Shown here piece by piece: positions 1-59,027 of a stretch of DNA of 64,000 bases; the first letter of the stretch is position 1, and every line of letters starts with the position of its first letter. Location: NCBI GenBank assembly GCA_965655095.1, contig OZ296657.1:61628001-61692000 (forward strand), written 5' to 3'. Position numbers and translations under genes: made by a program. The stretch comes from Haplodiscus bocki. Taxonomy: Eukaryota. The notes beneath the pieces are model-generated. The model did no database searches, was not told the DNA's origin, and saw nothing but the letters and a program-made list of their open reading frames with translations.

Positions 1-3000
1 TGTTGTTCCAAACTTCTCTCATGTCCGGTTTGATGCAATCTTCAAGCGAATCATGAGCCAGTGCCAGGTAGAGGGAGTCTGTATCCATTTCCATTTCTTG
101 GAAGGAGTTAAAATCACAAACCTTTTGGAAAAAATTGTAATACAATTCAAGCATTCGGAGTTTTGCATACTGTAGGATAAAAAATCCCACAATGATGGGT
201 TCTTTGTGTTCTAAATCTGATTTCACTGATTCGACCTCGTACAAGTTATCATTCAGATGGTTAAGTTTTTTGAAAAACTTGCTGTTGATAGCTTTGTGCG
301 CTTTTTCATCATTCAGATACTTAGTTATAGTGTGTCGACTTTTATCCATAATTTGATAACCGTAGGAGCTATTCGCTAACAGCTTCATAGTCTCAGCTAC
401 TACACTCGAGTGTGGATTTTCATCAACTTTTCCCCGGGCATCCACTGCAGACTGAACAAAGCTATTAAAGCATTTCATTGGAGTGTACTGAACAAAGCGA
501 TAAATTCGGTCACATTCTAATCCAAGATCCAAATAAAAGTTTAAAAGCGGTGTGATAACTGTACCGTTTATGAGATGAAAACTGGATATTAACATTCTCC
601 GGGGTTGAGTCATCGGTTTGTTTTCCTCTGCGTATTTTTTCATTAAGGCGCCAATATCTGAGCGTGAAACGAATATAATTTTGAAAATGGGTGGAACAGA
701 TTCGAATTCCTCTCTCAAGTTTTCTGGTACTCTAAGATCACATTGTACGTAACCAAACAACTCTCCTTTCCGAATGCGAGAAAGTAGGTTCTCAAAGCTC
801 AGAGGACGCTTGTAGGGAAATTTTGATCTGACAAAAGACTTTATCTCATGATTCTCGCGCATGTGAAGCTTCCACTGACACTCCCACATCTCAATGACAG
901 AATTTTTTTCTCGCAAGTAAGATCGACATAAATCGTCCATTTCTCTTTTCCTTTGTCCCTTCACAATGTCTTTATCTGTAAGACAAGGATGCCCTTCCTC
1001 ATATTCGCAAAAGTGATAGAAGCAACCCAAAGCTTCAAAAATTGTGTTACAGTGACTGCAAAACCCATCAACGCTAAAGCAGTCAATCTTTCGCTGAGTT
1101 CCGGTTGTGGAAAAGCTCTCAATATTACATTCCGGTCGCGAGTTCTTGAAGAAAGCCATAACCATGTTCTCAAAGGGTCTGGTTTTATTGGATCGAGGTT
1201 TGAAACGCTGCAAGTCGGCATTAAATTCCCAACGTGTATAAAGTCCAGTCGGCATCGGCTGACACATGGCAAAGGGATATAGCTGACTAGCATCGATACC
1301 TACTATCGATTTGCAAGTCTTTGAAGATGAACGAATACGTGTCTGTCCCACCACTGCTTTTCTAGTGAAAACAATGGAAGGACCGCCAACCATGTCTTCT
1401 CTTATTTTTTCAAGCAAGTCGTTGTCTCCTTCTGGGAATGGGTAAAACTTGACATTCGTGGAGCTATGAAGACAAATGTTTGCGAGATTTGGTAATGTAC
1501 AACCCAGCTTCAACATATCAATTCGCTTACTATGATGAAACTCAATCATTTTTTTCATCGCTTCAAGCGTTGGCAGAACATCCTTGTTATTGTACCATCG
1601 AAGAAAATCTTTGAATGATTGCATGTCGTGGTTTTTCCATACTTGCTCTAAATAAGCATATTTCTCTTGTCCTGTGGGAGGAATTGAAGAAACTCGAAGT
1701 TTTTTCAGCGCTTCTTCACTGCTGCATCCAGAGTTGACGAAACTTTGATAATCATAGTAGGCTTTATCCAGCGGGTTGCAATTACGTAATCGGCTGAAAA
1801 ACTCGTCGTACGGTGGAAGTGTCGGATACGTGAGTTTTTCGGGACTATCAAACCATTTGTACGGGAAAAACCCTTTCGTTTCGGTAGTCTTGTAAGCCTT
1901 CAAGAAGGAATCATGACTAGTTGCACCACCGAGAAAGTTCATAATGTCGAGGAATTGCACGTTTCCAAATTTGGAAGATATATATTGGTTTGCTTTTTTG
2001 ATAACTGTTGGTTCAATCTCCCTGTCATTCACAAGAAGAGGATTCAAGTAAGCTTTTATCAGATTCAAATCATATTTGGCACTGTTGAAGCCGAAAACTG
2101 GAAAGGTATTAACATATCTCTCAAAATGTTGTTGAAGCTCAAATAGCTTGTTTTTCTGAGTCAACAAAAACTGTGTGGAGACGCTAATTTCATCATCATC
2201 GTCACCCATATCCACCAAGCGTTCTTGCGGTTCATTTCCATTTGATAACTGTCTCCTCTTCGTGTTGATGGCTGACAACACACGATCCAGTTTTTCTTTT
2301 ATCCTCGTGGCAATATCATGAAATTTGAGGTTCAACTCCAGTTTATTTTTCTCTGCCAAGCTTTCCACAGAGTTTTTGAATGCTGAGACTAGTGAATGGG
2401 GCTCAGTGTTGCAGATAATTATAGGTTCTTCGAGTAGATTTGACGTTATAGACACTGAAATGGGTTCGTGTTTACCAACCCACGTTGTAGTCTCGGTGTC
2501 AACGAGTTTACAGTTTTTGGCACAAATTGATTCGAAGTCAAAGACTGCAAAATTGTTGAAAAGCGTATCACCGTCTCCCACCTCGATATCGAATGCCCTC
2601 AGTTTGTCAAAAAGAGTTTCTCGAAGTTGATAAACGTATTTTGGATAAATGTTTTTAACCAACTCTTCACACTTCGGCATATGACGTTGTAAATTGGAGC
2701 TCTTTGTGAAAAAAGTATTGCATGTAGAACACCGAAAAGATTCAAAAACCTTTTCACATCAGTAACATAACAGATATGGTTGTTAAATCTCAAGAGAGTT
2801 GCTGTGGAAATGAATCGTCGCAAAGAACGCTCAGCAAGTTCTCCAATAATTCCACCATCAGAAACTTCAATGTCATACACCACAATGTTCACTTCTGCCA
2901 GTCGTTCAACAATATGAAGATCTTCTAACCCATCACCTCGAAAGTTTTGAACTGATAAATGTGGGTTGGCTGTAAGATAGGCAGTGAGTAGTTTCTTTGT

Positions 3001-3920
3001 CTCTTCCTCCACCCTTTCGTTTCCTGTTTTGTGCATACACACAGCCCTTAGCAAGCAAAGGTTGTCTTTGTAACGTTCTTTGTTGGACTTGTAAGTGAGG
3101 CAGTTAACATCGCTTCGTTTAATTAGGTTGGGAGGAAGTAAAATATCCTTACAACCAACAGGAACACTCTTCAGCAATGCAGCAAAAATGGTTACATTTG
3201 TAGTAAAAAGCAACTTCGATTGGTAGAAGATCTTTCCCTTGTACTCAATTCCACAATGTTCAAACCATCCAGTCTCTGCTGAAAATCCGTCAAATCTTCT
3301 TTGTTAGCTATGAGAAGTGACCTTTCTAGAAGTAAACTATTCTCGTGCGCATAGAAATAACGATAACTTCCATCTTCCACATTACGAAGAACGAAACCCA
3401 GTGCTAAAGTAACTTTAGCTGCACAGAGCAAACTTTCGAAAACTTGTTGAATTTTCTCTCGCAGGAACTTTGGTGTAACAATTGTTGAGGCAAAATCGAA
3501 AAGATGCTGTCTACCTCTGACGAATTCGGAATCAACTAAAAAGTGTTGACAGGCTGTGAGCTCCTGACGAAGAGCTTGATCGTCGTAATCGCCCATAAAT
3601 GCGTCCAGGTTCACATTAACATTTTGTATTCTTGACGTTGTACCATGTACCGATTTCTTGTGCCTTTGCAGTGAATAGAAGCTGGGATATTCTTCCTCGC
3701 AAATATTGCATTTTGTTTTTGCTATCATGAAGGGTATTGCATGCTTTGTAGCAGTGTGATGATCCATCTCAGTTTGAGTCTTGCAGAAAAAGTTGGGACA
3801 TTGCGGACAAGATTTTGTTCCAGAGGTGCACGATTTCTTATGCCGTGATAAATTCACTTTTTTCACATTCTTTCCACAGTAATTGCAGGTTGTTTGTTGA
3901 TTACGATCGAGAGATGGCAT
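1..3920 (-). pseudogene. polB: Protein-primed family B DNA polymerase (pPolB), two N-terminal frameshifts, runs off window
   Basis: Manual translation places these motifs in one minus frame between ~2750 and <1: ExoI FDFES (~2530-2545), ExoII GFNSAKYD (~2070-2095), motif A GIDASQLYP (~1275-1300), motif B KLLANSSYG (~360-385), motif C DTDS (74-85). Upstream parts are ORFs 2599..3213 and 3192..3920 (C2H2 fingers), joined by frameshifts at ~2752 and ~3220. Confidence 0.95.
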
Positions 3921-4149
3921 CTTTCCTTCAGTTAGATTAAGTTAGATTATGGAAGAGTTCAAAAATCCTTGAATCAATTTGATAGTCACTAAGCAAAGTT
4001 TAAAGTAAATTAAAAAACGAACTATTTCGTAGTCAATCATTATTCCATAAAAGGATAGAACGAATCAAGTAAAAAATATGATGAAAGAACGAAGTCAAGG
4101 CAGCAACTCGTATCATTCGTTTATTGAATTCGTTTATACTCTGCTACAA

Positions 4150-4470
4150 AATTATTGAAGTGGAACACTTTTCCTCCAGTGAAAACTGAATGTCTGCAGC
4201 AATTAATCAAGTGGAACAGTTAATTCTTAAACCTACCACACTTTGTATGCTGTGTTCACTCATTCGGAACACTCCCCTTCCAAATAGAGACAGTTAGTCT
4301 GAGAAAATTGATCAAGTGGAATATTGCCGCTACAAATAGAGACAGTAAATCTGAGAAAATTGATCAATTGCAACGGTTCCCCGCACAGTTGACGACAGGT
4401 TCTCTGAGAAAATTGATCAACTGTAATTTTTTTCTCCGCCGGTGATGAAGAAGCTCCTGAGATAATTATT
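4150..4470. repeat. Degenerate ~52-bp tandem array in the divergent intergenic region upstream of pPolB
   Basis: TCTGAGAAAATTGATCAA at 4298, 4350 and 4403; weaker copies at ~4150, ~4201 and ~4457. Confidence 0.85.
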
Positions 4471-4760
4471 TCTTTCCGTCATGCTTTTCTCCTCTGCTGA
4501 CGTTGTTACACAAGAATTCAATGGAGCGCAGTAAAATTTAAACTAATCGAACATGCGTGGGATTGGTTGTTTTTCGCCTACACTTACTTTAAAAGAAGAA
4601 AATAAAATCTTTTTATCAAGATATTCTATTTTTTTTTGCAGAGTATAAACCAATAAAAATTCAACACGATAGCACTACTTTTTCATTGGATGTAACACTA
4701 GCTCAAATTTTCTAGTCATATTTTGTTTCTTCTGCATTCAGTAATTCTAAAGACAAGTAG

Positions 4761-5378
4761 ATGCCTATCAAAAATGAACTACCCACGCTCTCTAAACTCT
4801 ACTCAATTTACGAGGAGATTCCCGAAGACTTATTGGATGAAGCTGACATTGATTCCTATTTCTACCACAGCATTTTTTGCATTTTAAACATTACCAAAAA
4901 AGAAAATCGTCTTGTTCGTCTCAGCAAAACATCGAACAAAAATAACTTCAACCTTAAAGTTTTTAAATTCGACTGCTCCACAATACAACAAAAATATTCC
5001 TTGAGCGAAGAAATTACTTTTACAAGACGAGAATTGGGAGTAGTTCTGGATTGTTTGAACGATTTCTTACTACAATTCGAAGCAGCTAGACCATCTAATT
5101 ATTACTCTTTACCAACACCGAAAGCTCCCATTGGCTACACGTTTCTGAAAGACGGTCTTTTTTGTCATCATATACACGAGATCAGAGAACATTCAAAACG
5201 GCACATACGACTCTCGTTTCGACTCGAATTGAACAAGGACTGGATATTTTCTTTTAAAAAATTTACTCTGACTGACAGCGAGTTTCTCCTCGAGGAAATT
5301 ATCGATTTGCGTCACTTCGAAGTAAAAAGCCTCTTATCTAATCGAAAATTTATTAGATCCACGTGTTTTCTCACGTGA
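4761..5378 (+). CDS. Polinton accessory protein, 205 aa, possibly tandem PC4-like ssDNA-binding domains
   Basis: Intact ORF. Two similar halves, each beta-strands followed by EEITFTRRELG / EEIIDLRHFEVK helices; resembles ORF 8026..8613. Confidence 0.6.
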   Translation: MPIKNELPTLSKLYSIYEEIPEDLLDEADIDSYFYHSIFCILNITKKENRLVRLSKTSNKNNFNLKVFKFDCSTIQQKYSLSEEITFTRRELGVVLDCLNDFLLQFEAARPSNYYSLPTPKAPIGYTFLKDGLFCHHIHEIREHSKRHIRLSFRLELNKDWIFSFKKFTLTDSEFLLEEIIDLRHFEVKSLLSNRKFIRSTCFLT

Positions 5379-5530
5379 ATTTTGCTGCAATTTTCATTGG
5401 TTGATCAAATTCCCCAAGAGAAATTTTTCTACAAAATTCACTTCATACAGAATTCATTTCTCATTTTGTCTCAATTCAATACAGTTATCACTTTCCGATC
5501 TTTCTATCTCGCTTCGCAACCTTACTCAAC

Positions 5531-6191
5531 ATGATTTTTTCCGTGTCGAACAACAACATGAACTGGTCTCTGGAATTTGGACCACATACTGTCTCCCTGA
5601 AGTGCAAAATTTCGCGGACCAGGCAGTTCTGAATTCAATTGAGATTCCATTAGCTGTGTGGAATCTACTCGAAAGTCAAAGACTGCGATTTTTGGAGGAT
5701 GCAATTAGTGGCGCACCTCTAACAGAAGATGAGCAGGCGAGACCCTATGAAGTGCACGAGCAAGCAAATGTACCCAACCTACTCCCCAATCATGCAATGC
5801 GACAAGACGCTCTTCGAGGCTGGGAGGGACAAGAAATTGTAATCGATAACGGTTCAACAACAGATTCAGGCGTAGGCACTATGTCTCCTGGAACCAGTAC
5901 GGTCATAGAGACAACAAATGTTTCTTCCAGCATCTTCGATCTGTGGCTATTGATCGCTACGGATTCGATTATCCGGTGTGGACAGACAACTCTGGAGATG
6001 ATGTTGATGTGCATGGACAGGAGCATTTCGACGATGATGAAGAAGACGAGGAAGATAGGGAGAACACTCCACCTGCAGGAGTCCATGACGATGACGACAA
6101 CCAACCTCAACGTCTCAGAGGCAGCAATGGAGTACCTTTTCAAAGGGTTGAAAACATAACTAATTCCGTAATCAGATCATTGTTTGAATAA
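5531..6191 (+). pseudogene. Acidic, largely disordered accessory protein with short linear motifs (oncoid-like), frameshifted
   Basis: Combines ORF 5401..6159 and ORF 5943..6191 (frameshift ~5941; start at 5531 and a shift at ~5628 are tentative). DSGVGT at 5863-5880, DDDEEDEED tract, C-terminal IRSLFE. Confidence 0.6.
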
Positions 6192-6306
6192 TGTTTATAA
6201 TATTTTTTTTTCACCATCGTACAAATTTAATCATCTCACTTAATACCTAATGTTCTCTGTTTCTAAATTCAACTTTTCGAAATTGTTTTTCTTTTCATTC
6301 CGCGAA

Positions 6307-6594
6307 ATGTACTTGTTAGATAAGGTTGTATGCATTAGTTTAGTTCTAGTATTGGTAATCGCATTTCTGGTTGCTACGATAGTTATGTACGAAGCGAATC
6401 GTGTCTTGGTACACAATGATACTACTACGTCTTTCACGTTCCAAACGTTATGTAAAGAAGACTACCATGAATATTGTCTTAACGGAGGAGAATGTTATGT
6501 TGTATCAATGAAAGATCAAGAGGAAGCTGTAGCCTGTATGTGTACATCTTTTTATGGAGGTGGTAGATGTGAAAAATATATGTGGTGGACGTAA
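6307..6594 (+). CDS. EGF-family growth-factor-like protein with N-terminal signal/TM anchor (95 aa)
   Basis: Hydrophobic VVCISLVLVLVIAFLVATIVM, then an NDT sequon, then C-x7-C-x5-C-x13-C-x-C-x8-C with CLNGGEC and YGGGRC. Confidence 0.9.
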   Translation: MYLLDKVVCISLVLVLVIAFLVATIVMYEANRVLVHNDTTTSFTFQTLCKEDYHEYCLNGGECYVVSMKDQEEAVACMCTSFYGGGRCEKYMWWT

Positions 6595-6852
6595 AATCAC
6601 AACAAAACAACCTGACGGAAGTTGCTTAATAGGTAAGTAACGATATGTTTTTGAAACAGATCATGAAAATCTGAACAAAAAACGTGACGCGTCAGAAATT
6701 TTAACTGTTTTTTTCTAACATGTTTGAAATTAATAATGAAATTTTCACAACAGTTGACGAATACAAATATCACAAAACCTTGACAAGTTGAAGAATATTA
6801 AACGTAATATTAATCAAACTAAAGTTCTTGATATACAGTCATCCTTTCCATC

Positions 6853-7467
6853 TTAGAAAAACAATTGTTTGGAAGCTTTTATTTTGAACGATACCAAATT
6901 ACTTTCAAAACCACCGTATCCATCAAGGAAACAGTCAATGATTTTAAATAGTTCCAGTTCAAATTTTGTTTTTCTCCTCACACTCTCGACTCTCTCCACA
7001 AAAACTGATCCGGTTGTTTGAACTGAAATTGACCTTTGAACTGATGTCAGCATGTGTTTTTTCAACTTCTTTCTGAGTAGTCGCTTTTTTGCAATGCTGG
7101 GCATCTTATCCACTCCTTTATTGAGTTTGTTGAACGAAACGGCTCTCTCCACACTATCGAATATTTCTCCATTTTTCTCCAACACCTTGCCGCTGAATCT
7201 CAACTTGAATAGAGTGTAGAAACAATCAACGTGTTGATATGTGAAGCAAAAACGGTCCAGTTTGACAAGTAGGTCATTCAAATCCCTGTCTGCAATGAGA
7301 AGGTGGAAATGGCAATTTTTCAAATAACAAAATGCAGGATCGTGGACTGCTACACAATAGTCACGACAGACTAGGAATTTCTCGTAGTCATCGGTTGAAA
7401 TAAACAAAGATGTCTCGGAAAACTTTTGGAAAAAGCTTGGAATTACTTGCAACATAACTGCAGCCAT
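6853..7467 (-). CDS. Putative HUH-superfamily endonuclease-like protein
   Basis: Intact ORF (likely start M38 of 6853..7578). VAVHD...CHFHLLI (HUH plus hydrophobic strand), downstream Tyr candidates (TYQH, CFYTLFK), basic NLS-like KKRLLRKKLKK. Confidence 0.55.
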   Translation of the reverse strand: MAAVMLQVIPSFFQKFSETSLFISTDDYEKFLVCRDYCVAVHDPAFCYLKNCHFHLLIADRDLNDLLVKLDRFCFTYQHVDCFYTLFKLRFSGKVLEKNGEIFDSVERAVSFNKLNKGVDKMPSIAKKRLLRKKLKKHMLTSVQRSISVQTTGSVFVERVESVRRKTKFELELFKIIDCFLDGYGGFESNLVSFKIKASKQLFF

Positions 7468-7598
7468 TGCTTCGCTTCCTAAATGACAGAATGGAACGTT
7501 GTAAACTTTTACGTTACTAAATGACAGAAAGGAACGTTGTACACTTTTACTTTTCAGATCAGTTAGGTTGTTTTTCATTCAATAGAAACTTGATTTGC

Positions 7599-7885
7599 TT
7601 TTGACCAAAAACAACCATTTCGTTAGCCAATGAAATTTCAACACACCACTTGCTACTGTTTCTCAACACCTTACTCTCGTAAATTAGAAGGAAGCTTATA
7701 TGGCAATGTGTTCCAAATAAGGAATAGATTATTCACAGTGCAACCAAAAAATCACTTTTGACCAAACACAGTCATTTCGTTAATCAATGAAGTTTGGACA
7801 CACTACTTGTTACTGTTTATCAATAGCCTATTCTCGTAGGTCAGAAGGAACCATATATGGAAAAGAGTTCCTAAAAAGGAAATAA
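7599..7885. promoter_or_regulatory. Duplicated (157-bp period) divergent promoter module with CCAAT-like box and paired CArG boxes
   Basis: Units start at 7599 and 7756. GCTTATATGG 7694, CCAAATAAGG 7713, CCATATATGG 7851, CCTAAAAAGG 7870. GGAA directly precedes the first box of each pair. Confidence 0.65.
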
Positions 7886-8025
7886 AGGCAATTGCGAATG
7901 AGAAGGAAAAAAATAACCTTTTCGGTTGTTGTAAACTCAACTGCAATAATCATTTCATCCCGATTCTGTTTCAAATACACTCGATCTAACTTCAATTTCA
8001 ACAAAAATAATTTATTTTAAAAAAG

Positions 8026-8613
8026 ATGATTTTCAACATTACTTCAGCACTCGACAAAACGTCTTGTACGGACTATGTTGATTTCGGCAAAAATGCGGAC
8101 CGATTTGGGAGAATTTCTTGGTCCCAAATCGCAAAAGACAATCAGAAATATCTGGACATCCAACTGAAAGTTTTCCGAAAAGATGACAAGGGAGACTTCC
8201 GCAGACATCAGCAGATAAAGTTGGGGGTATTCGATTTCAAAGAACTCCTCTGTTTGCGGAACCCAATTGTTCTGGCTGTTGGAGAGTTTTCCACAGACGA
8301 GACGCTTAAAGAAGTTGTCACTTCACCCCTATCCAAAGATTTGGATGAACAGCTAAAACATATTCAAAAGGCTATCACAATTGTGGAGCGTCCCAAAAGG
8401 AAGATAATTGCTACCATGAAGAAACACTGCATGGATAAACCGGAAACCACATACGTGCAACTCCGCCTTTTCACGAGAAATAGTGAACATGATAAACTTC
8501 AGCAGCTAGTTCTTGTTAACTATAAATATGATGAATTTTTGTATTTGTTAGATGTTATTACTTCTATAGCTGATCAAGTGTTGTCGAATCAGTCTCTATG
8601 TAACATTGTTTAA
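8026..8613 (+). CDS. Polinton accessory protein, 195 aa, probable tandem PC4-like fold
   Basis: Internal duplication YLDIQLKVFRK...IKLGVFDFKELL / YVQLRLFTR...VNYKYDEFLYLL, resembling PC4 (IDIREYW...ISLNPEQWSQL). Confidence 0.65.
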   Translation: MIFNITSALDKTSCTDYVDFGKNADRFGRISWSQIAKDNQKYLDIQLKVFRKDDKGDFRRHQQIKLGVFDFKELLCLRNPIVLAVGEFSTDETLKEVVTSPLSKDLDEQLKHIQKAITIVERPKRKIIATMKKHCMDKPETTYVQLRLFTRNSEHDKLQQLVLVNYKYDEFLYLLDVITSIADQVLSNQSLCNIV

Positions 8614-8659
8614 TTCAGGTTATTTCTGTCGAATCATTTTTATAATAGAGAGTGTCGAG

Positions 8660-9077
8660 ATGAGTTGGAACATTGGAGATAACAGAAATGTTTTCCTAAA
8701 ATTGAGAACAAAATTGGGGCTTTATCATGTACTTTTAACTTCATCGCAAAAAACTCCCAAAAAAGTAAATCTCACAATTGTTGAGATGCAACAATTACCA
8801 GAAGTCCGAAAGTTCGATTCTGAAAACGAAATCTCTTGTCTCAGGTGGATAATCTTCAACGGAAGACGAAAAATTTGTCTTTTACAAAAGCGATACCGAT
8901 TATGTAGGAATTACGGTATATCGATACCGCAAAAACATGTATATGAAAGATTCGGATAATGAGCTCAAATTAACCGAATACAACACACTTTTGGAAAAGA
9001 AAAAGTATCTTTTAAGTTATCTCGAAACCTTTTCCAAAAAATTTATCGTAGTGGAGGAGTCAACTCATCACAATTGA
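8660..9077 (+). pseudogene. Accessory protein, possibly PC4-like, 1-nt frameshift at ~8880
   Basis: MSWNIGDNRNVFL...GRRKICL joins the +1 frame YKSDTDYVGITVYRYRKNMYMKDSDNELKLTEYNTLL to TGA at 9075-9077. Confidence 0.5.
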
Positions 9078-9529
9078 TACTATTTTGCTGGGAGATGGAC
9101 GTCTTCTTTGTTGTTGCTGTTATTCAATCTTACTCGGGATTGAAACTTTGTTCCCCATTCAAAAAAAACACAGAGAGGAAAAATTTATTTTTGAGTGTTT
9201 GTCACTGCTTGGATCCAAAAATCTCCTTGAGTGAGATGAATGATTTGTACCCTCACGGTGGACTTATTGGTTATGGTGATTCATACCTGGACAGTGTGTT
9301 ACGTTACTCGAAAGTATTTCGTCTACATGCAATTTTGCACGATGCTGCTGGTGCTGTGTATACAGAGAAGAGGAAAGGACCGGGTTATTGCTAGATTATT
9401 AGACGCGGACCAAACTCGTGTTTGTTTGGTCATATCACAGGACTTCTTTTTTGTCTCTATTTGAAGTTTTTTGTACCTTCCATATTCAACCGATTCAACT
9501 GTAGACCAAAATACCATGAGTTACGATAG
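9074..9529 (+). pseudogene. Phospholipase A2-like (HD motif) protein, premature TAG at 9392
   Basis: GGLIGYG...LHAILHDAAG...GPGYC; the frame continues past the TAG (GPNSCLFGHITGLLFC) to 9529. Confidence 0.5.
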
Positions 9530-9708
9530 TGATAATGTTTGTCAGAAAACATTCTTAACGATGTATTTTGATAAGTTGCGATTTTGTAAGTTTGTATTTA
9601 TTTATGTGTCCAATTTCTTATATGTTCATGAAATCGAATTGAAGTTTTTCATTGTGTCTCATTTTTCTTCCACTGAAACATTACATAACTTTGCACCTTG
9701 AGAATCGG

Positions 9709-9969
9709 ATGGCTAACCATGCAGATCAAATCAACTTAGATAAAATTGTATTCGACGAAAACAATTCAGAAAGAAAATCCTGGAGTTGTATTGGACATTC
9801 TTGTTCAACATCGCTAATAGTGTTTTTGTCCCAATTTTTCGCCATCTTGTTAGTTATTCTGGGCAGTTTTTGGAGAATACACTTATCAAAATCTTGCGAC
9901 GAGAGTACAGTTTGGGTGGGAATTTTGTGTAGTGCTGCTGGAATCATTGTCCTTACTCAAAGACTATGA
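9709..9969 (+). CDS. Small two-TM membrane protein typical of Polinton-like elements
   Basis: WSC...LIVFLSQFFAILLVILGSFW...SCDESTVWVGILCSAAG; lies directly upstream of the ATPase. Confidence 0.65.
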   Translation: MANHADQINLDKIVFDENNSERKSWSCIGHSCSTSLIVFLSQFFAILLVILGSFWRIHLSKSCDESTVWVGILCSAAGIIVLTQRL

Positions 9970-10625
9970 ATAAACTTATTTCTACAAAAAATAGAGTTTT
10001 CATCTCTTTAGTGGGACCCGGTGAATCAGGGAAATCTCTACTTAGCCATCAATGGTTAAAAAACGACACCTTCCAACCAAAGTTTGGAAAAATTTTATTT
10101 TTCTACCAGCATTTGCAACCGCTTTACGATGTAAGGCTGAAGGAAATCGAAAACATTGAATTTGTTCAGGGTGTCAATTTTGACTTTATAGATTCTCTGG
10201 AGAACAATGGAACTAAATACCTATTAATTTTTAATGACTCTTGTCAAAAAATTTGTAACTCCAGGGAATTCGAGAAAATTGCTGTAGCAGGAAGACATCG
10301 CGGACTAAGTACTATTTACATAAAGCACAATTTATTCCACAAGAGTAAATTGGGAAGAGATATCGAGCTTCAAAATACTCATATTGTTCTATTCAAGTCA
10401 CCGCGAGATGTATTACAAGTTGGTAGGCTCAGTGTTCAGTTGGGGCTAGGTTTGTCGCTTGTGGATTGGTATAAAGATGCAACATCCGTACCATTTGGTC
10501 ATTTATTAATTGACTTGTCTCCCCGAACGGACGATCGTTTACGATACTGTACAAACAGTGGAAAAAAACCCTCAAAATTTTACATACCTGAACAGTTGAA
10601 ACCTTTGGAGAATTTTGGACGATGA
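9966..10625 (+). CDS. A32/FtsK-like genome-packaging ATPase (degenerate Walker B)
   Basis: Walker A GPGESGKS, Walker B YLLIFNDS (DD to ND), arginine finger GRH..LSTIYIKHNLF. The C-terminus probably frameshifts into the 10615..10911 frame. Confidence 0.92.
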   Translation: MNKLISTKNRVFISLVGPGESGKSLLSHQWLKNDTFQPKFGKILFFYQHLQPLYDVRLKEIENIEFVQGVNFDFIDSLENNGTKYLLIFNDSCQKICNSREFEKIAVAGRHRGLSTIYIKHNLFHKSKLGRDIELQNTHIVLFKSPRDVLQVGRLSVQLGLGLSLVDWYKDATSVPFGHLLIDLSPRTDDRLRYCTNSGKKPSKFYIPEQLKPLENFGR

Positions 10626-10924
10626 CCACACAAAATCGCTCTATTCTCCAAGCATTCCAACACTTTTCCCCCAAGTGCAAAATACAATTTCTACAAAACT
10701 CCCCGAAAGAATTCATTCGGTTCCTAAGCGAATGTATAGTGAACCTGCTCCACGGAAATTTGCAAGATTTGAAAAAAGAGCAAGTAATAAAATATCGAAA
10801 ACAAATCTACGCACTTTCTCTGGTGAGAACAACTTGGAAAGAAAGACGAAGAAATTTGTCAACAAAAAAAGGACTGTTACTAATAAAAACAATATCCCCA
10901 TTCGTCATTAGTCATTTATCTTGA
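10622..10924 (+). CDS. Conserved small basic Polinton protein (ECxxNLLxGN family; 'gasderminX' in adintovirus nomenclature)
   Basis: FIRFLSECIVNLLHGNL...KKGLLLI motif; located after the ATPase. Confidence 0.65.
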   Translation: MTTQNRSILQAFQHFSPKCKIQFLQNSPKEFIRFLSECIVNLLHGNLQDLKKEQVIKYRKQIYALSLVRTTWKERRRNLSTKKGLLLIKTISPFVISHLS

Positions 10925-10925
10925 C

Positions 10926-11338
10926 ATGGAAGAGTTCGTGCTTGTACCAATTTCCGTGTATAACAGTAACAAAAAAACCAACCATTGTTACAAAGAAGGA
11001 ACTAACAACTTATCACAGCGAAAAAAAAACCCACGTACCAGATTGAATCTGTGAAGAAAGAAATCAATAAAAACCTTTTTGCTAAAACTGATTCTCTCGT
11101 TGATAAAGTTTTGTCTTCACCTCGCATAAAACTTTCGACCTCGAACTTTTTAATCTTGGATGGAAGGGATACTGGAGTTTGTCTGACAAACTTTGCCCAG
11201 ACATTGAAACTTAAAAAGGCGGAGGTACCAGATATTTATTTTACTTTACTTGATGCTGCTGATATTACAACCAGCCTGGTTCTGAATAATCATGCCAAAG
11301 AAAAAGAGAGAGGGAGCTGGGTTCCTTTCAAGATCTGA
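10926..11338 (+). pseudogene. Conserved Polinton protein upstream of integrase, frameshifted
   Basis: MEEFVLVP start at 10926; A-run frameshifts lead into ORF 11051..11338 (LILDGRDTG...W). Confidence 0.55.
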
Positions 11339-11966
11339 GAAACAAAAATTGCAGAAGTTGTACAGCGAAGGTCCTGCAGCTTATGGTTCAGTCAAAAACT
11401 TGACAAAGGCAAGCAAACTCCCAGTTTCAAAAGTGCAATATTTTCTTCATTCAAAGTCCTCCTACACGAGATTTAACCAAGCAACCAGAAAATTCCGAAG
11501 AATGAGAGTTTTCGCTAGATTCAAAAACGAAGTTTGGTGTATGGACTTGGCATTTGTCGACAAATTAGCCAAAGATAACAATGGAGTAAAACATTTGCTC
11601 GTTCGTCAAGACATGTTTGACAGAACGGTGGATGCAAAAGGAATGAAAACAAAGGATTCAAAAGAAACCGTTAAAATTTTTTCCAAAATGATTACAAAAA
11701 AGAATCGACCAAAAAAGATTTGGGTAGACCAAGGTACAGAATTTGCCGGAGATTTCACTCCACCCAAATTCGCTATAGGCGATAAAGTTCGGATTTCTAA
11801 GATTGATTTACCCTTCAGAAAAGGTTATAAACCTCAGTTTATGGAAGAAAATTTTGAGATTGTTGCCCTTGCTAGCAGAAAACCTCCGACATACACTATA
11901 AAAGACAATCAGAATTTGGTTATACGTGGTAAATTTTACGAAAAGGAAATGATTAAAGTCATTTGA
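11292..11966 (+). pseudogene. int: Retroviral-type (rve) integrase with in-frame internal deletion
   Basis: WCMDL and WVDQGTEF (first two D of DDE) run directly into PKFAIGDKVRISK...KGY...GKFYEKEM; the catalytic-Glu (ERxxR) segment is absent. Confidence 0.9.
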
Positions 11967-11968
11967 GA

Positions 11969-12753
11969 ATGGATTCCTTCACAATAGAGTTGGTCTCAAA
12001 CGCATCCTCCGAATTGTTTCCGGATAATACTTTAAGTTCTTTCACGAACTTCCTTCCCGAACAAGTCAACTTTGAAGGTCAATGGGAGGTCACAGTATCA
12101 GAGATTTCGTATCCCTCAATGTACCAGAATGTAACGGAAGGAAAATTCTTATTTCACGACAATGAATTATCAAAAACAAAAGATTACTACTACCTTGAAC
12201 CAGGATTATATCATTCTATTACCGACATAGTAGAAGCGATGAACTCACTCATTCAGAATAGAAACAATCACAACACGACCTGCATCGGCGTGAAAGTTGA
12301 TCGTAGATCCCAGAAAGTGACTTTTTCGCTTGTTAATGATAAATCTAGTTTGGTGATATCTAGTATCGACTTGAGTCACATTTTTGGAGGTGACGTCCGG
12401 AACGATCGGGGGATTTTGATGCTTGGTAAGGGACCACACAAACCGTTGTTTGCATACGACATTGTTCGAATTCATTCGCTCATGATTTACACTGATATTG
12501 TAGAGTACAACATAGTCGGAGAAACAAAAGCACCCTTATTGCGATGCTTTTCTTTCATATCGAAGGTAAAGTCCGGTGATGTCATTACCACGGGACAGTA
12601 CATGAATTATCAGACTTTCAGTAATCTACAAACTCCTTTCATAGTGTACAAATTGATTTGCGTGATACGTCTGGGGAGCAAATTCCTTTTGTTTCTGTGG
12701 GAATAACCAGACTTGTTCTCATGTTCAGAAAAGTGTCTGATTTTCATTTTCAA
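11969..12753 (+). pseudogene. Minor capsid (penton) protein, C-terminal deletion/frameshift
   Basis: FTIELVSNAS..FPDNTLSSFTNFLP...GQWEV..SEISYP; IYTDIVE..IVG..KAPLLR. The tail IDLRDTSGEQIPF...LMFRK is in another frame. Confidence 0.85.
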
Positions 12754-12771
12754 ACAAAAAACGTGTACCAA

Positions 12772-13065
12772 ATGGTCGCTTCAAGAGAAGTAAAACTTCC
12801 CTATTACAAAGGAGTGGGAAGACAACGAGGACGAGGGTTTGGCGCTCTCGCTCAAGTTATTGGGAGAACTGCTATTCCTTTCTTGAAAAAATATGTTGTC
12901 CCAGCTGCTAGACGTATCGGTGCTGATATGTTAGGGTTCGCAGTACCTGAAATTGCTGACGTTGTCAGTGGTAAACAAAATTTCAAAGCAGCTGCTAAAA
13001 ACGTGGGAAGGCAAACTCTAAAAAAACAACTCGGTGGTGGAAGTAGGAAAGGCTCCGCGAGCTAA
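12772..13065 (+). CDS. Basic core/membrane-active virion protein with protease-type cleavage site
   Basis: YKGVGRQRGRGFG followed by amphipathic ALAQVIGRTAIPFLKK; lies between the minor and major capsid genes. Confidence 0.7.
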   Translation: MVASREVKLPYYKGVGRQRGRGFGALAQVIGRTAIPFLKKYVVPAARRIGADMLGFAVPEIADVVSGKQNFKAAAKNVGRQTLKKQLGGGSRKGSAS

Positions 13066-13139
13066 GTCATTCAGTCCAAATCCAAGAAGCGCAACAGTCG
13101 GTCACGCAGAGATATATTCACTAACGTTGCGACGTGAAA

Positions 13140-14504
13140 ATGACTTCACAAAATAACTTTCGGTACCAACCATATGTGGCAGCTTCTGGCAATCTTGGTG
13201 GTAAAGTCCCAGTTGTAGATGATGTTCTATCATCTCATGAACAACAAATTTACACCACCACGTCGCTGGATGAAAGCAGCATTGAATTTGAGTTTCAAAC
13301 AGATCGTAACTATTACGTTGATTTGCGTCAGTCTTATTTAGCTCTTAAAGTTAACTTAGTCAAAGGACGTGGTTATGACAAACAAAAATCGAAAGAAGCT
13401 AAGAAGGAACACAAAAACGAAGAACAGCCAACAGAAGCAGCAGCCAATGATGAAGAGGATGATACTAACTCGGTACCCCTTCTTACATATGTAAACAATA
13501 TAATGCATTCTATTTTTTCTAATGTGGAGGTGTATATAAACAATCAGCAAATATACAACTCAAATGGACTCTATGCTCACAAGTCGTATATTTCCAACAA
13601 CTTTAAGGGAGCGATCTCTGAGTACAGGGGTGTTTTGCATTGTGAAGGTTATGACTTCGAAGAGAATCCTGATGACATTCAAGACTCGCTCCTGTCGGAT
13701 CCCTTCTTTTCAAGAAGAATGAAAATGCTACTGAGAAGTGACCGAATTGCGTTATACGGAAAATTGGGTGTTGATTTTTTCACAACCTCCGAATTACTTT
13801 ATCCAAATATGAAAGTTAGAATACGATTAATCAGAGCGAGACCTAACTTTTACATGATTAGCGACAACCCTAATGTTAGTTTAGGAAGTTTAGACTGTAC
13901 GTTGTACACACGTCGCATTGGACTAAAGGAGGATTATCACAAGAAAAGAATGGACATGCTTGCATATGCTCCGATGGAATACAACTATATGGAAACGTTG
14001 GCAAAGACAATTATCATTCCATCCAGTCAAAATCAATTCATTCAAGAAAATATTTTCAACAATGCTCCCATTCGTCGAATCGCGATAGCCATGAATACAA
14101 ACTCCGCTTTCACTGGTTCTTTCACTGAAAACCCGTTTTGGTATCAACAATTCGATCTCAGACAAATTAGAATACTCAGGGGAGGCCAACCAAATGTAGA
14201 TTATGACACTTCCGATAATTGTCGCCTATACGTAACTACGATGAAAGCAATGAACTTCCAAGACGACATACCATCGATTCCTATTGATAATTTTCAAGAC
14301 CATTACGTTCTAGTATTTGGTTTGACGTCAATGCAGGATGCCACCGAACATTGTCATTATCCAGAGTTGGTTGGAGAACCGCTGAGATCGGAGCTTAACT
14401 TTAACACTGCTCTGGAACATGTTACTGAAGTCATTGTATTAGGAGAACGAATGTCTTCAGTTGCAGTCGACAAGTTTGGAGTTGTTGGAAAACATATTCA
14501 GTAA
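13140..14504 (+). CDS. Double jelly-roll major capsid protein
   Basis: Intact ~454-aa ORF with Polinton MCP motifs (IEFEF...YVDL..SYL; NNIMHSIFSNVEVYIN; P.RIAIAM..N.AF.GS..ENPF.YQ.FDL). Confidence 0.9.
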   Translation: MTSQNNFRYQPYVAASGNLGGKVPVVDDVLSSHEQQIYTTTSLDESSIEFEFQTDRNYYVDLRQSYLALKVNLVKGRGYDKQKSKEAKKEHKNEEQPTEAAANDEEDDTNSVPLLTYVNNIMHSIFSNVEVYINNQQIYNSNGLYAHKSYISNNFKGAISEYRGVLHCEGYDFEENPDDIQDSLLSDPFFSRRMKMLLRSDRIALYGKLGVDFFTTSELLYPNMKVRIRLIRARPNFYMISDNPNVSLGSLDCTLYTRRIGLKEDYHKKRMDMLAYAPMEYNYMETLAKTIIIPSSQNQFIQENIFNNAPIRRIAIAMNTNSAFTGSFTENPFWYQQFDLRQIRILRGGQPNVDYDTSDNCRLYVTTMKAMNFQDDIPSIPIDNFQDHYVLVFGLTSMQDATEHCHYPELVGEPLRSELNFNTALEHVTEVIVLGERMSSVAVDKFGVVGKHIQ

Positions 14505-14510
14505 ACTTTC

Positions 14511-15014
14511 ATGGATAACGTTGCTCTTCGTCAAACAAAAAACCGCATTCCACTTCTCAAGTATCGGTACAATGGTTCTTTTCCTTGCGATTATGTTCCA
14601 ACACTCCCGAATGATACGTTTGCCATTATCAACACCCAACCGAGCAACATGCAAGGTGAGCATTGGATTATGATAGCAAAGCTTCGTCATCGGTTATACT
14701 TTGCTGATTCTCTTGGTCGCAAAGACTACAGCTTCCTCAGGAGAAACTACAAACGGATGATCCCAGAACGGTTGCAGCTTCATCAGAGTCTTTGTGGATT
14801 TTATACAATATATGCGGCTCTTCTCTTCAAGTTTGGACAAGAAGAAATTACTGGTGTTCACGATTTAAATGTACTCTCTTTTATTAGTAATTATATGTAT
14901 TGCTCCATAAAATGTAAATGTAAGTATGCAGTGTATACATTTCACTTGTTCCTTTTTGTACTTCTAATTAACATTTTTCAACTTAAAATCAACCTTTTTT
15001 TACATAACATCTAG
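14511..15014 (+). CDS. Adenain-like cysteine protease
   Basis: IINT..S...GEHW, FADSLG, LQ..QSLCGFY (His-Asp-Cys triad). Confidence 0.92.
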   Translation: MDNVALRQTKNRIPLLKYRYNGSFPCDYVPTLPNDTFAIINTQPSNMQGEHWIMIAKLRHRLYFADSLGRKDYSFLRRNYKRMIPERLQLHQSLCGFYTIYAALLFKFGQEEITGVHDLNVLSFISNYMYCSIKCKCKYAVYTFHLFLFVLLINIFQLKINLFLHNI

Positions 15015-15079
15015 TCCAAAGCACGGTCGGAAAAGTTCACTCAACCTTTTTACATAGCAATAGGTGAGTAGTCGTAACA

Positions 15080-15359
15080 ATTTTGCACGGTCGCGCCGCC
15101 ACCGGAAGCTGAAAAACTGCTGCCGAAAAATTACATAATAATGTCGCTGCCGCCCGCCTCGACGTTTCCGCCGCCCGCCTCGGCCTATGCCGAAAAATTA
15201 CCTAATAAAGTCTCCGCCGGCCGCCTCGGGGCCCCTGGAAAAAATCAAAACAGGGGGTGAAGACCCTTCTTGGCTCTCGTGTGCTATAGGATAGCTTAAA
15301 ACATGAGGGTCTTCACCCCCCCCCCCCCCCCTGGCTGTCTAGCTCGCCTATATACTACT
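15080..15359. repeat. Right terminal (TIR) region of the Polinton
   Basis: GCCGAAAAATTAC.TAATAA.GTC..CGCC..CCGCCTCG twice (15122, 15189); hairpin GGGGGTGAAGACCCT / AGGGTCTTCACCCCC (15253-15321); poly-C tract; ACTACT end. Confidence 0.8.
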
Positions 15360-17382
15360 CATGAGTCTGGCAGCTAAATGTGCTGCGCACAGTTCCAACT
15401 TCGGAATACTGATTGACTTCAGAGGAGCAACCTTCGTTTTGCATGCATGGAGCTTTGTGGTAACTGATCCATCTAATTTTTCCACTCTGGCGTAGAGAAC
15501 AGCTGCATAGGCCTTTTCTGATGCGTCTGCTAATATATGCAATTCTATGTTTTTCTTACTTTCTGAGCGAATAGATCTGCGAAATTGTATCTGATCTGGT
15601 GAGTTCAATTGCTCATGGCTGCTTGCCACGTTTCTTCTAGGTCGACGGGTAATGTATCGTTCCATTGTAAGCCTTTTACCCAAGCTGCTTGCATCAACAT
15701 TTTGAGGATAATTGTGATCGGAGCTATCCATCCCAAATGATCGAAGAGTTTCGCTATCTCTGAGAGTAGTTTTCGCTTTGTGCTGTCTGTCTCAAAGCTT
15801 CCGTTATCTCTAAAGCAGAAAACATCTCTTGAGGGATACCACACTACTCCCAAAGCTTTGATCGACTTATCTTTCTTGTTCAACTCTAGAACGTCTTTGC
15901 TCTCAAGGAGATGTGGTGTAAGATCTTTGAGGACTTCAACACTTGATGACGACCATTTCCGCAAGGGAAAGCCCCCGCCAAGAAGTTTTTCCTGCAACTC
16001 ATTTCGCAACTTCTTCGCTTCGTCAATTGATTCTGCTCCTGTGAGAAAATCGTCTACGCAACTGTCCCAAAGAATAACTTCATCCACCAGAGAATCGGTG
16101 GAAACCAGACGAGCGAATTCCATATGTTACACGAGTCATCCGTAAATGTTGCAACTCTTCGTTAGGGTCAGGTCTCCAAAATATTCGATGAAAGTCCTTG
16201 GCTTCTTTACTCAACGCCATTTGCCGGTACATTTTTTCAATGTCTGCTGACAGCGCTACTGCGTGTAACTAACACGTAGAAGGATTCCGAAGATGTCGTC
16301 TTGTTGCTTGGCACCCACCATGAGATTTGCATTGAGGGAATTTCCGTTGGTAGTTAACGCTGATCCATCCAAAACAACTCAATTTCGTCGTTGTTGACAA
16401 CTCTTTCATTTCAGCATGATGCGGTAAGTAGAATGATTTCGAAGTTTCAACTGGCACCTCCTCCTCTGGTATGACCTCCATATGTTGCATATCCAAGATT
16501 TCTTGAATGAATGCGGTATACCTTTGCTTCAAATTGCCATCTTGCTGGAACTTCTTTTCCAACGAACTGAATCTGTTCAGAGCCTTTGGTAAACTATGTC
16601 CCAACGATTTGCTATCTGGTTTGAATGGAAGGGAGACTACATACCTGCCATCCTCTTGACGTGTAGTAGTCTCAATGAAGTGCCTTTCACACTCTTTTTC
16701 TTCCTCTGTAAGTAGGGAAGCATATGGAATTTCTTCGATTTCCCAGAATTTTCTGTGCTGGTCGTTGATATCCGGCTGTAGAACTTGAGCATGCAACGCT
16801 ACTGCTTCATCTGGATGAGCGGATGAACTGACGTACTTCCCTGTGACGACCCATCCAAATACTGATTCGCGATAGGACAATTCTTCGGTCTCTTCAATTT
16901 TTCCAGCCATCATGAGTCTTTCATACACGTCGTTCCCAATGAGAATGTCGATTGGACCGGGCTGATAAAATTTTGGATCTGCAAGTTTCAGACGTCTTGA
17001 ACGCTTGAGTGCTTTAGGATCCAATGGTGCGGAAGGTGGTTCCCTTGTGACCTTGTCTAGTACAAATGCTTCGACTGGTATGACACGATCATCACCAAGA
17101 AGATTGAAACTGACCTTGTATTTTGAGAGTGTGCTCCCGACGCACCTATGCTGAAGATTTGCATCGAAAACCTCTCTTTCGCCAGTCCCAAGGTTTGTAC
17201 GCATTGTTCTGGCACCAGCTCAACTGTGCTCCAGGATCTAAGAATGCACGACACTTGATTTGTTCGTGGGATCCAGGTTTTTGTATTGATACCAACGCTG
17301 TGGCAAGACTAACATGAGGATTTCCGTTGATTGCTATTGACAGCTTCGGAGGATTGAGCCATTGCAATATGAGCTCTTTCAT
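15360..17382 (-). pseudogene. pol: BEL/Pao pol fragments (protease, RT, RNase H)
   Basis: RAFLDPGAQ; LADPKFYQPGPIDILIG; YLPHH; CVDDFLTGA (from YVDD); ADASEKAYAA...KTKVAP..SIPKLEL; many frameshifts. Confidence 0.9.
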
Positions 17383-18662
17383 TACTCAGCCTTTCTCTGT
17401 GAATCAAGGAATGATGCTTTCCACGGCAAGTTCGGCAAACTGACTTGCTTGGGCATTGACTGATCATGTGAGACGATCGTAGACAATTGAAACACAGCTT
17501 CTTTTGCCTCAAGTTGACTCGAGCAGCAACATCGAGAGATGTAAATTCTTGAAATTCTGCACCTTGTGATTTCCTCGGCAAATTTGGCAAATATTGGTCT
17601 CTGTGACACTTGCACCGTACGCTTGACCGCGTTCTGGTCCGGATTGAGTATGTCCATACCCTCTTCTAGTATTGGAGCCTTTTTTGCGCTATTGACGGTT
17701 TTCGTTTCTGCGGGGAGCACGCTTTTGAGTTTTGCAGAACTAGATTCTAGCGCACGACATCGCTCTCACAAGAAATCTGTTATCTGTTGAATTGTTTGAA
17801 GATCATTGCCTGCATGAGCTAGTTCCCATGCCTTCCTTGATTCTGAGTCGAGCTTCTGACTGATGTGGTAGACTAGGATTGCATCCCATTGATGTACAGG
17901 CACACCAAATGTCTCTAATGCTTGCATTTGTTCTCGAAAAGTTTCAAGAAGATTCCGCATTTCTTGGGCTGTTTCACCCTTCATGAATGGAACTTCCAGC
18001 ATTGCTCTGATGTGGCCTCTAACAACCAATCTAAGGTTGGCAAACCTTGTTTGAAGTGCGTTTCTGGTTCCCGCGCAATTTGCATCTGTAATTGTCAAAT
18101 TTCTGATAATTTTGGCTGCATCTCCTTTCAACGATGCCTTAAGATATTGCAATCTCTGAGCATCCGTCAAGGTTTCGTTGGTGTGCACTGAGGCATTGAA
18201 TAAATCCCAAAAGCGGTTCTACTGTAGATATTCTCCGGAAAGTACCGGAATGTTCATTTTTGGTAGTTTGAATCCTTGACGCGTTTGTCGTCTCTCATCT
18301 TGCATTGCCTGCGGAGCCTGATTGACGAGAGCCATTGGTTGATCTGCTTCTGCGAGCAGTCTCGTGATCAGAAGGATCGTTTGCGTAATGGCATCGAGGT
18401 TCTCTGACGATTCTGCCACCTCTGCTTCCGATGCATCGTCGTCCTCAATCAGCATTTCAATCTCTTCGCCTAAATCTGCTATTAGGCTTCTCTTCGACTC
18501 GAGTGCTGTTTTCAAGCCAAACAATTCATTTGGCTGTGCTACTGTGAGCTGTGCCATCGGAACTGCTAAAATTTGCGCTGCTTTGTTGGTGTAACGTGTT
18601 GCTACACCTTTGTGCGAGGCACGTGGGCGTACTAATCTCATTTTCCTTTCGTGGTCTTCCAT
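17309..18662 (-). pseudogene. gag: BEL/Pao gag fragments
   Basis: KLPKMNIP; QRLQYLKASLKGDA; zinc knuckles CFNCLRSSHMISQC and CRTCRGKHHSLIH. Confidence 0.9.
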
Positions 18663-58244: not shown

Positions 58245-59027
58245 CAGTAGTGTCAAAAATGCATGAAACCTTTATTTGAATTATTATTGGAACGACAAAT
58301 ACTTGCCTAACAGTGAAAAACAACTGAAGATCACAAGTTATGGTCCGAACAAACGGTTCTGAAAATTTTATCAAGTTTACAATAGTGTTTGTTTGAAACG
58401 TCTAAAATGGTTCATATGGAAACTGGGACATACTGTATGTGTATGTTTTAAGATAGGAGGTCGATTTTGCATCGCAACTTTCGATGTTTTAAGTACCTTT
58501 TACCACGTTTTTGTTTACATTTCATTTATTGTCAAGATGCCCCTCACTTACTGATAACACTCATAAGTTAGCAGCTCTCCAGTGTTTACACTATCAGAGA
58601 ACAAAGACATTCTTTGAAAAAAATACCATTTTGAATATTATTACGTTGTAAAATTGTCATGCCTCAAAGAATGTCTATGTTCTTTGATAGTGTAAACACT
58701 GAGAGCTGCTAACTTATGAATGTACTCAGTAGGTGAGGGGCATCTTGACAGTATATGAAATGTAAAGAAAAACGTAGTAGAAGGTACTTAAAACACCGAA
58801 TGTTGCTATGCAAAATCAACCTCCTATCTTAATACATACACATACAAAATCTCCTAATTTCTATAAAAACGATACTAGAAGTTTCACTAACTTGATAAAA
58901 TTTTAAGAAACCTTCTTTTCGACCATAATTTGCGATCTTCAGTTATTTTTTTTTGTATTAGGCAAATATATGTATCGTTCCAATAATAATTCTCAAATAA
59001 AGGTTCAATTACCTTCTGACACTACTG
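58245..59027. mobile_element. Foldback Tc1/mariner-type MITE (783 bp, nearly all inverted repeat)
   Basis: TA|CAGTAGTGTCA ... TGACACTACTG|TA; ~370-bp imperfect arms around a short loop near 58640. Confidence 0.9.

Follow-up and report, generated by a model that had tools for sequence, protein, structure and literature searches.

A Maverick/Polinton element in the genome of Haplodiscus bocki carries an accessory gene whose product, to judge from sequence, belongs to an unnamed family of lysine-desert proteins in which the degron motifs are interchangeable and the RxLF tail is conserved. The gene is real, single and under selection; the copy described here is broken twice. The reading that we favour, quite possible rather than probable, is that the product is a hard-to-ubiquitinate decoy of the APC/C and, in some lineages, of SCF-betaTrCP, and that it would also dock cyclins.

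Results

The accessory gene and its element

The window analysed is a stretch of 64,000 nucleotides (contig OZ296657.1, positions 61,628,001 to 61,692,000 of the forward strand). The features listed here are numbered from its first letter; lineages A to D are described in the next section.

1..15363, no strand: Maverick/Polinton element holding the gene; its left end lies ~1.5 kb outside the window and its right terminal inverted repeat at ~15121-15359
4761..5378, plus strand: upstream ORF of an unnamed family, syntenic in 28/29 A, 39/40 B and 79/88 C loci
5531..6191, plus strand: accessory gene (~219 codons in sister copies), with two frame breaks here, near 5600 and 5943
5531..5709, plus strand: head-coding region (residues 1-60 of P0001), predicted four-strand meander and helix, PUR/PC4-like; cut by the first break here
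5863..5880 and 5881..5889, plus strand: DSGVGT, then MSP; beta-TrCP-type DSGxxT phosphodegron and proline-directed site, lineages A and B only
5970..5987, plus strand: YPVWTD, ABBA-like (YPVFDE in many B copies); departs from the strict consensus and is absent from C1
6030..6056, plus strand: acidic run, directly before RENTPP
6057..6074, plus strand: RENTPP, the KEN-box position (DKENTPP in older A, NKENVPP in P0045, DKENAPP in C1, DKENEYP in C2)
6114..6155, plus strand: LRGSN-GVPFQRVEN conserved block; its second half stands where lineage D has its canonical D-box and lacks the P1 arginine
6174..6191, plus strand: RSLFE-stop (RSLF at 6174-6185), an RxLF cyclin-docking-type motif, among the best-conserved tail elements
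6250..6594, plus strand: next gene downstream, EGF-like (Pfam EGF at a sub-threshold E=0.018), whose N-terminal segment is hydrophobic
6853..7578, minus strand: opposite-strand ORF, syntenic in 29/29 A, 37/40 B and 76/88 C loci

The gene runs from an ATG at 5531 to a stop at 6189-6191 and is spread over three frames in the window (pieces 5531-5602, 5599-5943 and 5943-6188). A first-pass annotation of this DNA had placed a frameshift at ~5941; there is indeed a break near 5943, and it is not the only one, a second lying near 5600. The same annotation had joined the separate frames into one gene, a claim that could have failed in other copies. Of 40 scored DNA matches we took the 30 best, among them the window itself, and 23 of the 29 sister copies proved to hold a single natural, unbroken ORF of 211-222 aa; the three pieces are therefore one gene. 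Each of the motifs that had been named (DSGVGT, MSP, an acidic run, ENTPP and RSLF) lies where it was claimed to lie. The analyses that followed used natural unbroken ORFs, with P0001 (219 aa) as the reference.

A sister copy bounded by 244-bp terminal inverted repeats matches the element at 96-97% identity. The context features of a Maverick/Polinton (terminal inverted repeats, integrase, packaging ATPase, adenain protease and multiple copies) were all found, with the Pfam matches to the integrase rve (E=5e-6), an adenain-type Peptidase_C5 (E=0.002) and an A32-type ATPase (E=0.025) all below the curated cut-offs. In a sister copy the gene lies upstream of, and divergent from, a 1452-aa minus-strand ORF, which we take to be PolB; the capsid label is likewise presumed. 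Lineages A, B and C all keep the order of upstream ORF, accessory gene, EGF-like gene and opposite-strand ORF. Between these lineages the EGF-like gene shares ~39% identity; it resembles a viral growth-factor mimic, presumably of the kind found in poxviruses, and it follows on the same strand in 29/29 A, 32/40 B and 85/88 C loci, so that the reported position of the gene directly upstream of an EGF gene holds in all three lineages of the Haplodiscus bocki genome. Comparison of the head with the neighbouring ORFs at 4761 and 8026 gave an hhalign probability of 0.1, and no paralogy was seen.

Several other structures were observed in and around the element. Three 52-bp direct repeats at 4266-4422, which separate the large minus-strand ORF from the divergent plus-strand block, are possibly promoter or origin elements. 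Decayed LTR-retrotransposon pieces, which from their translations we take to be of Bel/Pao look, lie at 15348-18662 on the minus strand, right after the right end of the element. Nested long inverted repeats at 58316-58950, with 186-nt arms that are 86% complementary, are probably a MITE-like element. Upstream of the gene, lineage-C elements have ORFs that are rich in cysteine and contain repeated CxxC pairs (L118, 2191-3067, minus strand), none with a Pfam match over the cut-off; the lineage-A sister copy has no cysteine-rich ORF of at least 100 aa at that place. Several lineage-C copies occur in close pairs of opposite orientation, 2-4 kb apart (genome coordinates C2:38998338-39003084; C5:2627775-2630654; C5:80766725-80770867), which suggests that they may be short inverted-duplicated derivatives.

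Lineages of the family and selection on the gene

Protein searches divided the family into lineages. Lineage A is the type found in the window, and lineage B (P0045 and 40 decayed loci) is ~54% identical to it. C1 is ~30% identical to A and has at least 150 matches in the Haplodiscus bocki genome, which measures 1.5 Gb; C2 is represented by P0231 and its 165-member cluster; and lineage D comprises P0118, P0139 (D2, with a 230-member cluster) and P0146 (D3). Identity falls as low as 25-35% in relatives. In a tree built from 26 rows, A+B stood apart from C+D at 100/100 support. Lineage D is probably from other host genomes, because a D2 tail query found the tail in 0/120 candidates in the Haplodiscus bocki genome and the best matches there were 45% for P0118 and 37% for P0139.

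None of the family members examined is named, and no description of this lysine-desert family was found among open-access papers. Eight members gave no Pfam match over the cut-off; rows for Roughex (E=0.21) and GOLD_2 (E=0.12) were rejected as low-complexity matches. A search of PDB sequences with the family profile returned 0 matches at E<=10, the ESM Atlas held no usable match for P0001 or for the P0231 head, and no relative of P0118 was found in viral contigs. The sole match in a metagenome contig (L198) was discounted as an accidental likeness of short length, the contig itself being unrelated. The sequencing runs searched listed no RNA match.

The ratio of non-synonymous to synonymous changes, counted in unbroken ORFs only, was, for variants common to at least three copies, 0.17 among the 37 ORFs of C1 and 0.53 among the 23 ORFs of A, where there were only 14 such changes; for private variants it was 0.48 and 0.60, respectively. 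The gene is under purifying selection and has a fixed position beside the EGF-like gene; selection in A is weak and rests on few sites.

A lysine desert

P0001 has no lysine in 219 aa and has 12 arginines, so arginine is not depleted. The 16 other ORFs of the element contain 234 lysines in 2949 aa (7.9%), which gives a binomial p of 1.4e-8 for P0001. When its codon positions were shuffled, 9.8 lysines were expected and 0/5000 shuffles gave none; and none of 35 other ORFs of at least 150 aa had a lysine-free run of 120. P0139, P0334 and P0146 also have no lysine, and P0002 and P0045 have one each, the lysine of the KEN box. Higher counts are found in P0093 (two) and P0231 (three), with one in P0118, and the extra lysines are confined to the head. 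Lysine outside KEN is absent from 19/23 unbroken A ORFs and 25/37 C1 ORFs, stray lysines being mostly single-copy changes. In C1, 10 gains of lysine were private and one was shared, numbers that alone are too few to show selection against lysine.

The lack of lysine is thus conserved across the family, and many copies have no lysine but that of KEN. Among disordered proteins of the ubiquitin system, lysine deserts are over-represented (PMC10169902). Those of viral proteins have also been proposed to give general protection against degradation, so a lysine desert is not specific to decoys (PMC10169902).

Degron motifs and the RxLF tail

Tail conservation was scored in an alignment of nine representatives in which the partly decayed P0063 and P0206 were kept and mean tail identity was 0.23. 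RxLF scored 0.78 (rank 2/141 tail placements), and LRRS and the F..[VIL]EN block 0.53-0.55 (rank 4-5). The K/REN columns scored 0.29-0.39 (rank 20-45 of 142); this rank speaks against the decoy reading, whose weakest point is that the young lineage of the window keeps no consensus APC/C degron. A comparison of A with 40 B loci, of modest power because many columns are equally kept, ranked DSGxxT 2/128, RxLF 20/132 and xEN 51/136.

The KEN position is occupied differently from lineage to lineage. KEN is present in 35/37 C1 ORFs, with the full [DNE]KENxxP in 20/37, and also in P0045, P0093 and P0231, after an acidic run, as in the KEN consensus (PMC5717348). In lineage A, 16/23 unbroken ORFs have REN and 6/23 have KEN, and the window copy has REN; among the 23 unbroken sister copies, 20 read RENTPP and three KENTPP. 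Decayed B copies have KEN in 7/37 cases and several others have AEN; P0118 has DEN. Lineages D2 and D3 have no KEN. In D2 a canonical D-box, RxxLxx[ILV]xN, stands just before the C-terminus in 12 of the 15 members listed from the 230-member cluster (RPALRSIEN-type), and P0146 has the canonical D-box RPALAEIQN; none was found in A (0/23) or C1 (0/37). The strict ABBA motif Fx[ILV][FY]x[DE] is absent from A (0/23) and present in 1/37 C1 ORFs. Lineage A has a Y-start look-alike in 21/23 ORFs, which C1 lacks, and the idea of an ABBA-KEN-D-box cassette is accordingly weakened.

Most lineages therefore appear to carry either a KEN box or a canonical D-box, and the young lineage of the window has REN. 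With REN (16/23), no D-box (0/23) and no strict ABBA (0/23), this lineage is without any consensus APC/C degron, and in it DSGxxT and RxLF may carry the function.

A SUMO-interacting-like hydrophobic-acidic stretch was also observed at ~5839-5853 on the plus strand; it reads IVID in 21/23 A ORFs and is of IVLDE type in 35/37 C1 ORFs.

RxLF stands within the last eight residues in 20/22 A and 38/48 C1 ORFs. In 20,000 composition shuffles of the P0001 tail, [RK]xL-hydrophobic arose by chance anywhere in 7.6% and in the last eight residues in 0.28%, and DSGxx[ST] in 1.5%. Single motifs are only modestly beyond chance, so it is conservation that decides. The RxL cyclin motif, proposed in the first-pass annotation, is upheld on this measure, since the C-terminal RxLF is retained against the disordered background.

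A protein whose main job was cyclin-CDK docking or inhibition through RxLF, whether by competing through a Cy motif as p21/p27 do or by serving as a scaffold for CDK substrates, would account for part of this pattern; its degrons would be secondary and its lysine desert would give stability. RxLF is the only motif present in nearly every lineage, KEN, D-box and DSG come and go between lineages, SP/TP sites are present in the tail, and cyclins A, B, D and E have the RXL site in conserved form (PMC6170502). However, P0146 ends without RxLF yet keeps its D-box, and the consensus degrons of C and D would be left unexplained. The likeness to the Cip/Kip proteins p21 and p27 is one of sequence match in the RxL motif only; the protein stops 1-2 residues after RxLF, with no CDK-binding segment beyond it, and has neither a KID domain nor a Pfam match. 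We consider cyclin docking as the main job unlikely, and retain the APC/C decoy as the preferred reading, in which docking would be one activity among others.

Predicted architecture: a folded head and a disordered tail

The AlphaFold2 model of P0001 has a confident head over residues 1-60 (pLDDT 89-98 per block), consisting of four strands and a helix; after residue 75 pLDDT is mostly <50, with a low-confidence helix at 211-218. The P0231 model is alike. The best structural match of the P0001 head was Pur-alpha repeat III (Z 7.0, rmsd 3.5, 57 aligned), and the P0231 head matched Pur-alpha at Z 6.8 and rmsd 3.0, with 57 aligned. Among the 16 leading structural matches, nine bear the name Pur-alpha or PC4/Sub1. 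The KhtT N-domain ties with Pur-alpha to within 1 Z, and all Z values are <8, the tool's threshold. Foldseek searches against the PDB and BFVD returned nothing at E<=0.001.

We conclude that the protein is predicted to consist of a 60-residue PUR/PC4-like head and a disordered tail. The likeness to the PUR repeat/PC4/Whirly-like fold lies in the four-strand meander plus C-terminal helix of the predicted head. The differences are that Z is <8, that there is no sequence similarity, and that the head is acidic rather than basic, with 1-5 basic and 5-11 acidic residues.

This architecture invites a different interpretation, that of an acidic transcriptional activator or replication helper in which the PC4/PUR-like head would be dimeric or bind single-stranded nucleic acid, the tail would be an activation domain ending in an amphipathic helix, and the cell-cycle motifs would be look-alikes. 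The prevalence of Pur-alpha and PC4/Sub1 among the structural matches, the acidic tail with its tentatively modelled terminal helix and the chance frequencies of short motifs (1.5-7.6%) are in line with it. Nucleic-acid binding is made less likely by the acidity of the head, however, and chance would have to be invoked twice, once for the consensus KEN that follows the acidic run in C and once for D's canonical D-box. We therefore regard an activator or replication helper as quite unlikely, and return to the decoy reading for what follows.

DSGxxT and membership of the Oncoids

DSGxxS recruits SCF-betaTrCP and is mimicked by HIV Vpu and rotavirus NSP1. In the family, DSGxx[ST] is present in 20/22 A ORFs (DSGxxT in 21 of the 23 unbroken sister copies), 16/40 decayed B copies and 0/48 C1 ORFs, and DSG-type motifs are absent from P0231, P0093 and P0118. 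Where C has KEN, 14 of the 15 listed D2 members have DEGFSE and P0146 has DSGFVND, which we take to be beta-TrCP-like degron variants. Across the nine representatives DSGxxT scored 0.07-0.09 (rank 108-113 of 139). DSGxxT works as a degron in Bora (PMC2287288). The beta-TrCP degron claimed in the first-pass annotation thus stands as a feature kept between A and B and falls as a feature of the family, being restricted to certain lineages.

The protein resembles the adintovirus/Maverick Oncoids and E1A/E7 in being an acidic, motif-driven Maverick accessory product that is probably aimed at the host cell cycle, and its gene would resemble theirs in position if the large minus-strand ORF that it lies upstream of, and divergent from, is PolB, as presumed. 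The Oncoid definition of Starrett et al. rests on LxCxE, CR1 and paired CxxC (PMC8502044), and in these the Maverick protein differs. LxCxE was found in none of 22 A ORFs, 48 C1 ORFs or seven representatives; CR1, as [DEN][LIMV]xx[LM][FY], in none of 23 A, 37 C1 or seven representatives; and CxxC in none of 22 A and 48 C1 ORFs. Six of seven representatives have no cysteine at all. The CK2 acceptor [ST]xx[DE] is present in 23/23 A and 37/37 C1 ORFs, a very common pattern that carries no weight without LxCxE. Strict Oncoid membership fails on these absences, and by that definition the gene product, as read from its motifs, is not an Oncoid; the oncoid or E1A/E7-style label is not supported. A loose use of the label could still be applicable under a later preprint, in which short linear motifs of interest are all that defines the class (10.1101/2024.03.25.586562). 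The broader suggestion of a cell-cycle manipulator still appears to be the best reading. The KEN position, the lineage-D D-box, the folded head and the lysine desert, none of which the first-pass annotation had picked out, point to the APC/C rather than Rb as the likely target.

The degrons might instead be self-destruction timers, the protein being a true substrate of APC/C and SCF that is tagged at its N-terminus or on Ser/Thr and so binds cyclins during only part of the cell cycle. KEN, D-box and DSG do normally mark substrates (PMC5717348, PMC2287288), and a few lysines are left in the lineage-C head. Yet tails that share only ~23% identity have no lysine outside KEN, which is the opposite of what a substrate needs, and cysteine too is nearly absent; we hold timers to be very unlikely. 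Just as unlikely, finally, is the model of the first-pass annotation itself, an E1A/E7-style Oncoid acting chiefly by beta-TrCP capture in the manner of Vpu and NSP1: retention of DSGxxT between A and B, the D2 and P0146 variants, the lack of lysine (which would suit a beta-TrCP decoy) and the presence of beta-TrCP in the host speak for it, but C1, P0231, P0093 and P0118 lack any DSG-type motif and no ORF tested has LxCxE, CR1 or CxxC.

Discussion

We favour the degron decoy because the degrons lack acceptor lysines, because K0/K1-Mes1 provides a precedent, and because the partners are encoded by the host. A Fzr/Cdh1 homologue (P0375) matches human FZR at E=7e-86, and cyclin E (P0275) is 31-38% identical to animal cyclin Es over the full query. 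A beta-TrCP D-domain was found, as was an exon-borne cyclin gene, presumably cyclin A-like. As a separate observation on this genome, the reading frames of cyclin E, other cyclins and the Fzr/Cdh1 homologue are long and unbroken, so that these genes have few introns or none (L189, L191, L192, L194, L199).

In the proposed mechanism, the KEN box or D-box of the tail would occupy APC/C coactivators, and DSGxxT would engage beta-TrCP in A, B and perhaps D. A degron with no acceptor lysine nearby would leave the ligase bound and tagging difficult, turning a substrate into an inhibitor, in the way of the engineered lysine-less Mes1. Since PUR and PC4 folds pair, the head may dimerise and thereby present two tails. 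RxLF would bring cyclin-CDK to the SP/TP sites of the tail, or would compete with host RxL proteins. The net effect could be to bring the cell, with help from the EGF mimic encoded next to it, into a G1/S- or G2-like state in which the element replicates more readily. A fuller picture, which we put forward with more reserve, is that Mavericks carry a naturally lysine-free, dimeric decoy in which the cyclin-docking tail stays fixed while KEN, D-box and beta-TrCP motifs are exchanged between lineages, and that this decoy and the EGF mimic form a two-gene module making the host replication-permissive.

The closest parallels are two pseudosubstrates that inhibit the APC/C, Acm1 of budding yeast and Mes1 of fission yeast, which are likewise disordered and carry KEN- and D-box-type degrons (PMC3084671, PMC3628523). 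Mes1 mutated at all lysines (K0) or at all but the KEN lysine (K1) blocks the APC/C (PMC3084671), and K1-Mes1, which arrests cells, is mirrored by the lack of lysines other than the KEN lysine in the Maverick protein (PMC3084671, PMC3628523). The Maverick protein differs in being encoded by a mobile element, in its PUR/PC4-like head, in its C-terminal RxLF and in its natural lysine desert, and no sequence homology to Acm1 or Mes1 was found. The canonical KEN and D-box pair of these inhibitors is in no lineage examined, because C1 has no D-box and D no KEN.

Emi1/Rca1 offers a second parallel, since it too joins a degron for the APC/C to one for beta-TrCP; Emi1 also has an RxL motif. Emi1 is both a beta-TrCP substrate and an APC/C pseudosubstrate (PMC2287288, PMC3628523). 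In contrast, the Maverick protein lacks both a zinc-binding region, CxxC being absent, and an F-box, for which Pfam gave no match, and without lysines its DSG motif would not easily be a destruction switch.

Viral antagonists of the APC/C (CAV Vp3/apoptin, HCMV pUL21a/pUL97, adenovirus E4orf4, HPV E2, orf virus PACR and HIV-1 Vpr) likely share its target and purpose (PMC13524340). They act by APC/C disassembly, degradation, phosphatase recruitment, coactivator sequestration or APC11 mimicry; a degron-mimic pseudosubstrate is not among these mechanisms, and the words KEN, D-box and pseudosubstrate are absent from the main text of that 2026 article (PMC13524340). Among open-access papers we found no viral KEN/D-box pseudosubstrate. 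If the decoy reading is true, the family would represent a degron-mimic mode of viral APC/C inhibition that is absent from the literature searched; if it fails, there remains an accessory family, so far unannotated, that combines a lysine desert with conservation of the RxLF tail. With 150-220 residues free of lysine, and with KEN traded for D-box between lineages, such a family would be a natural experiment in decoy evolution. If true, the decoy reading would also be evidence that Mavericks steer the host cell cycle as true viruses do, by a route other than that of the Rb-binding Oncoids.
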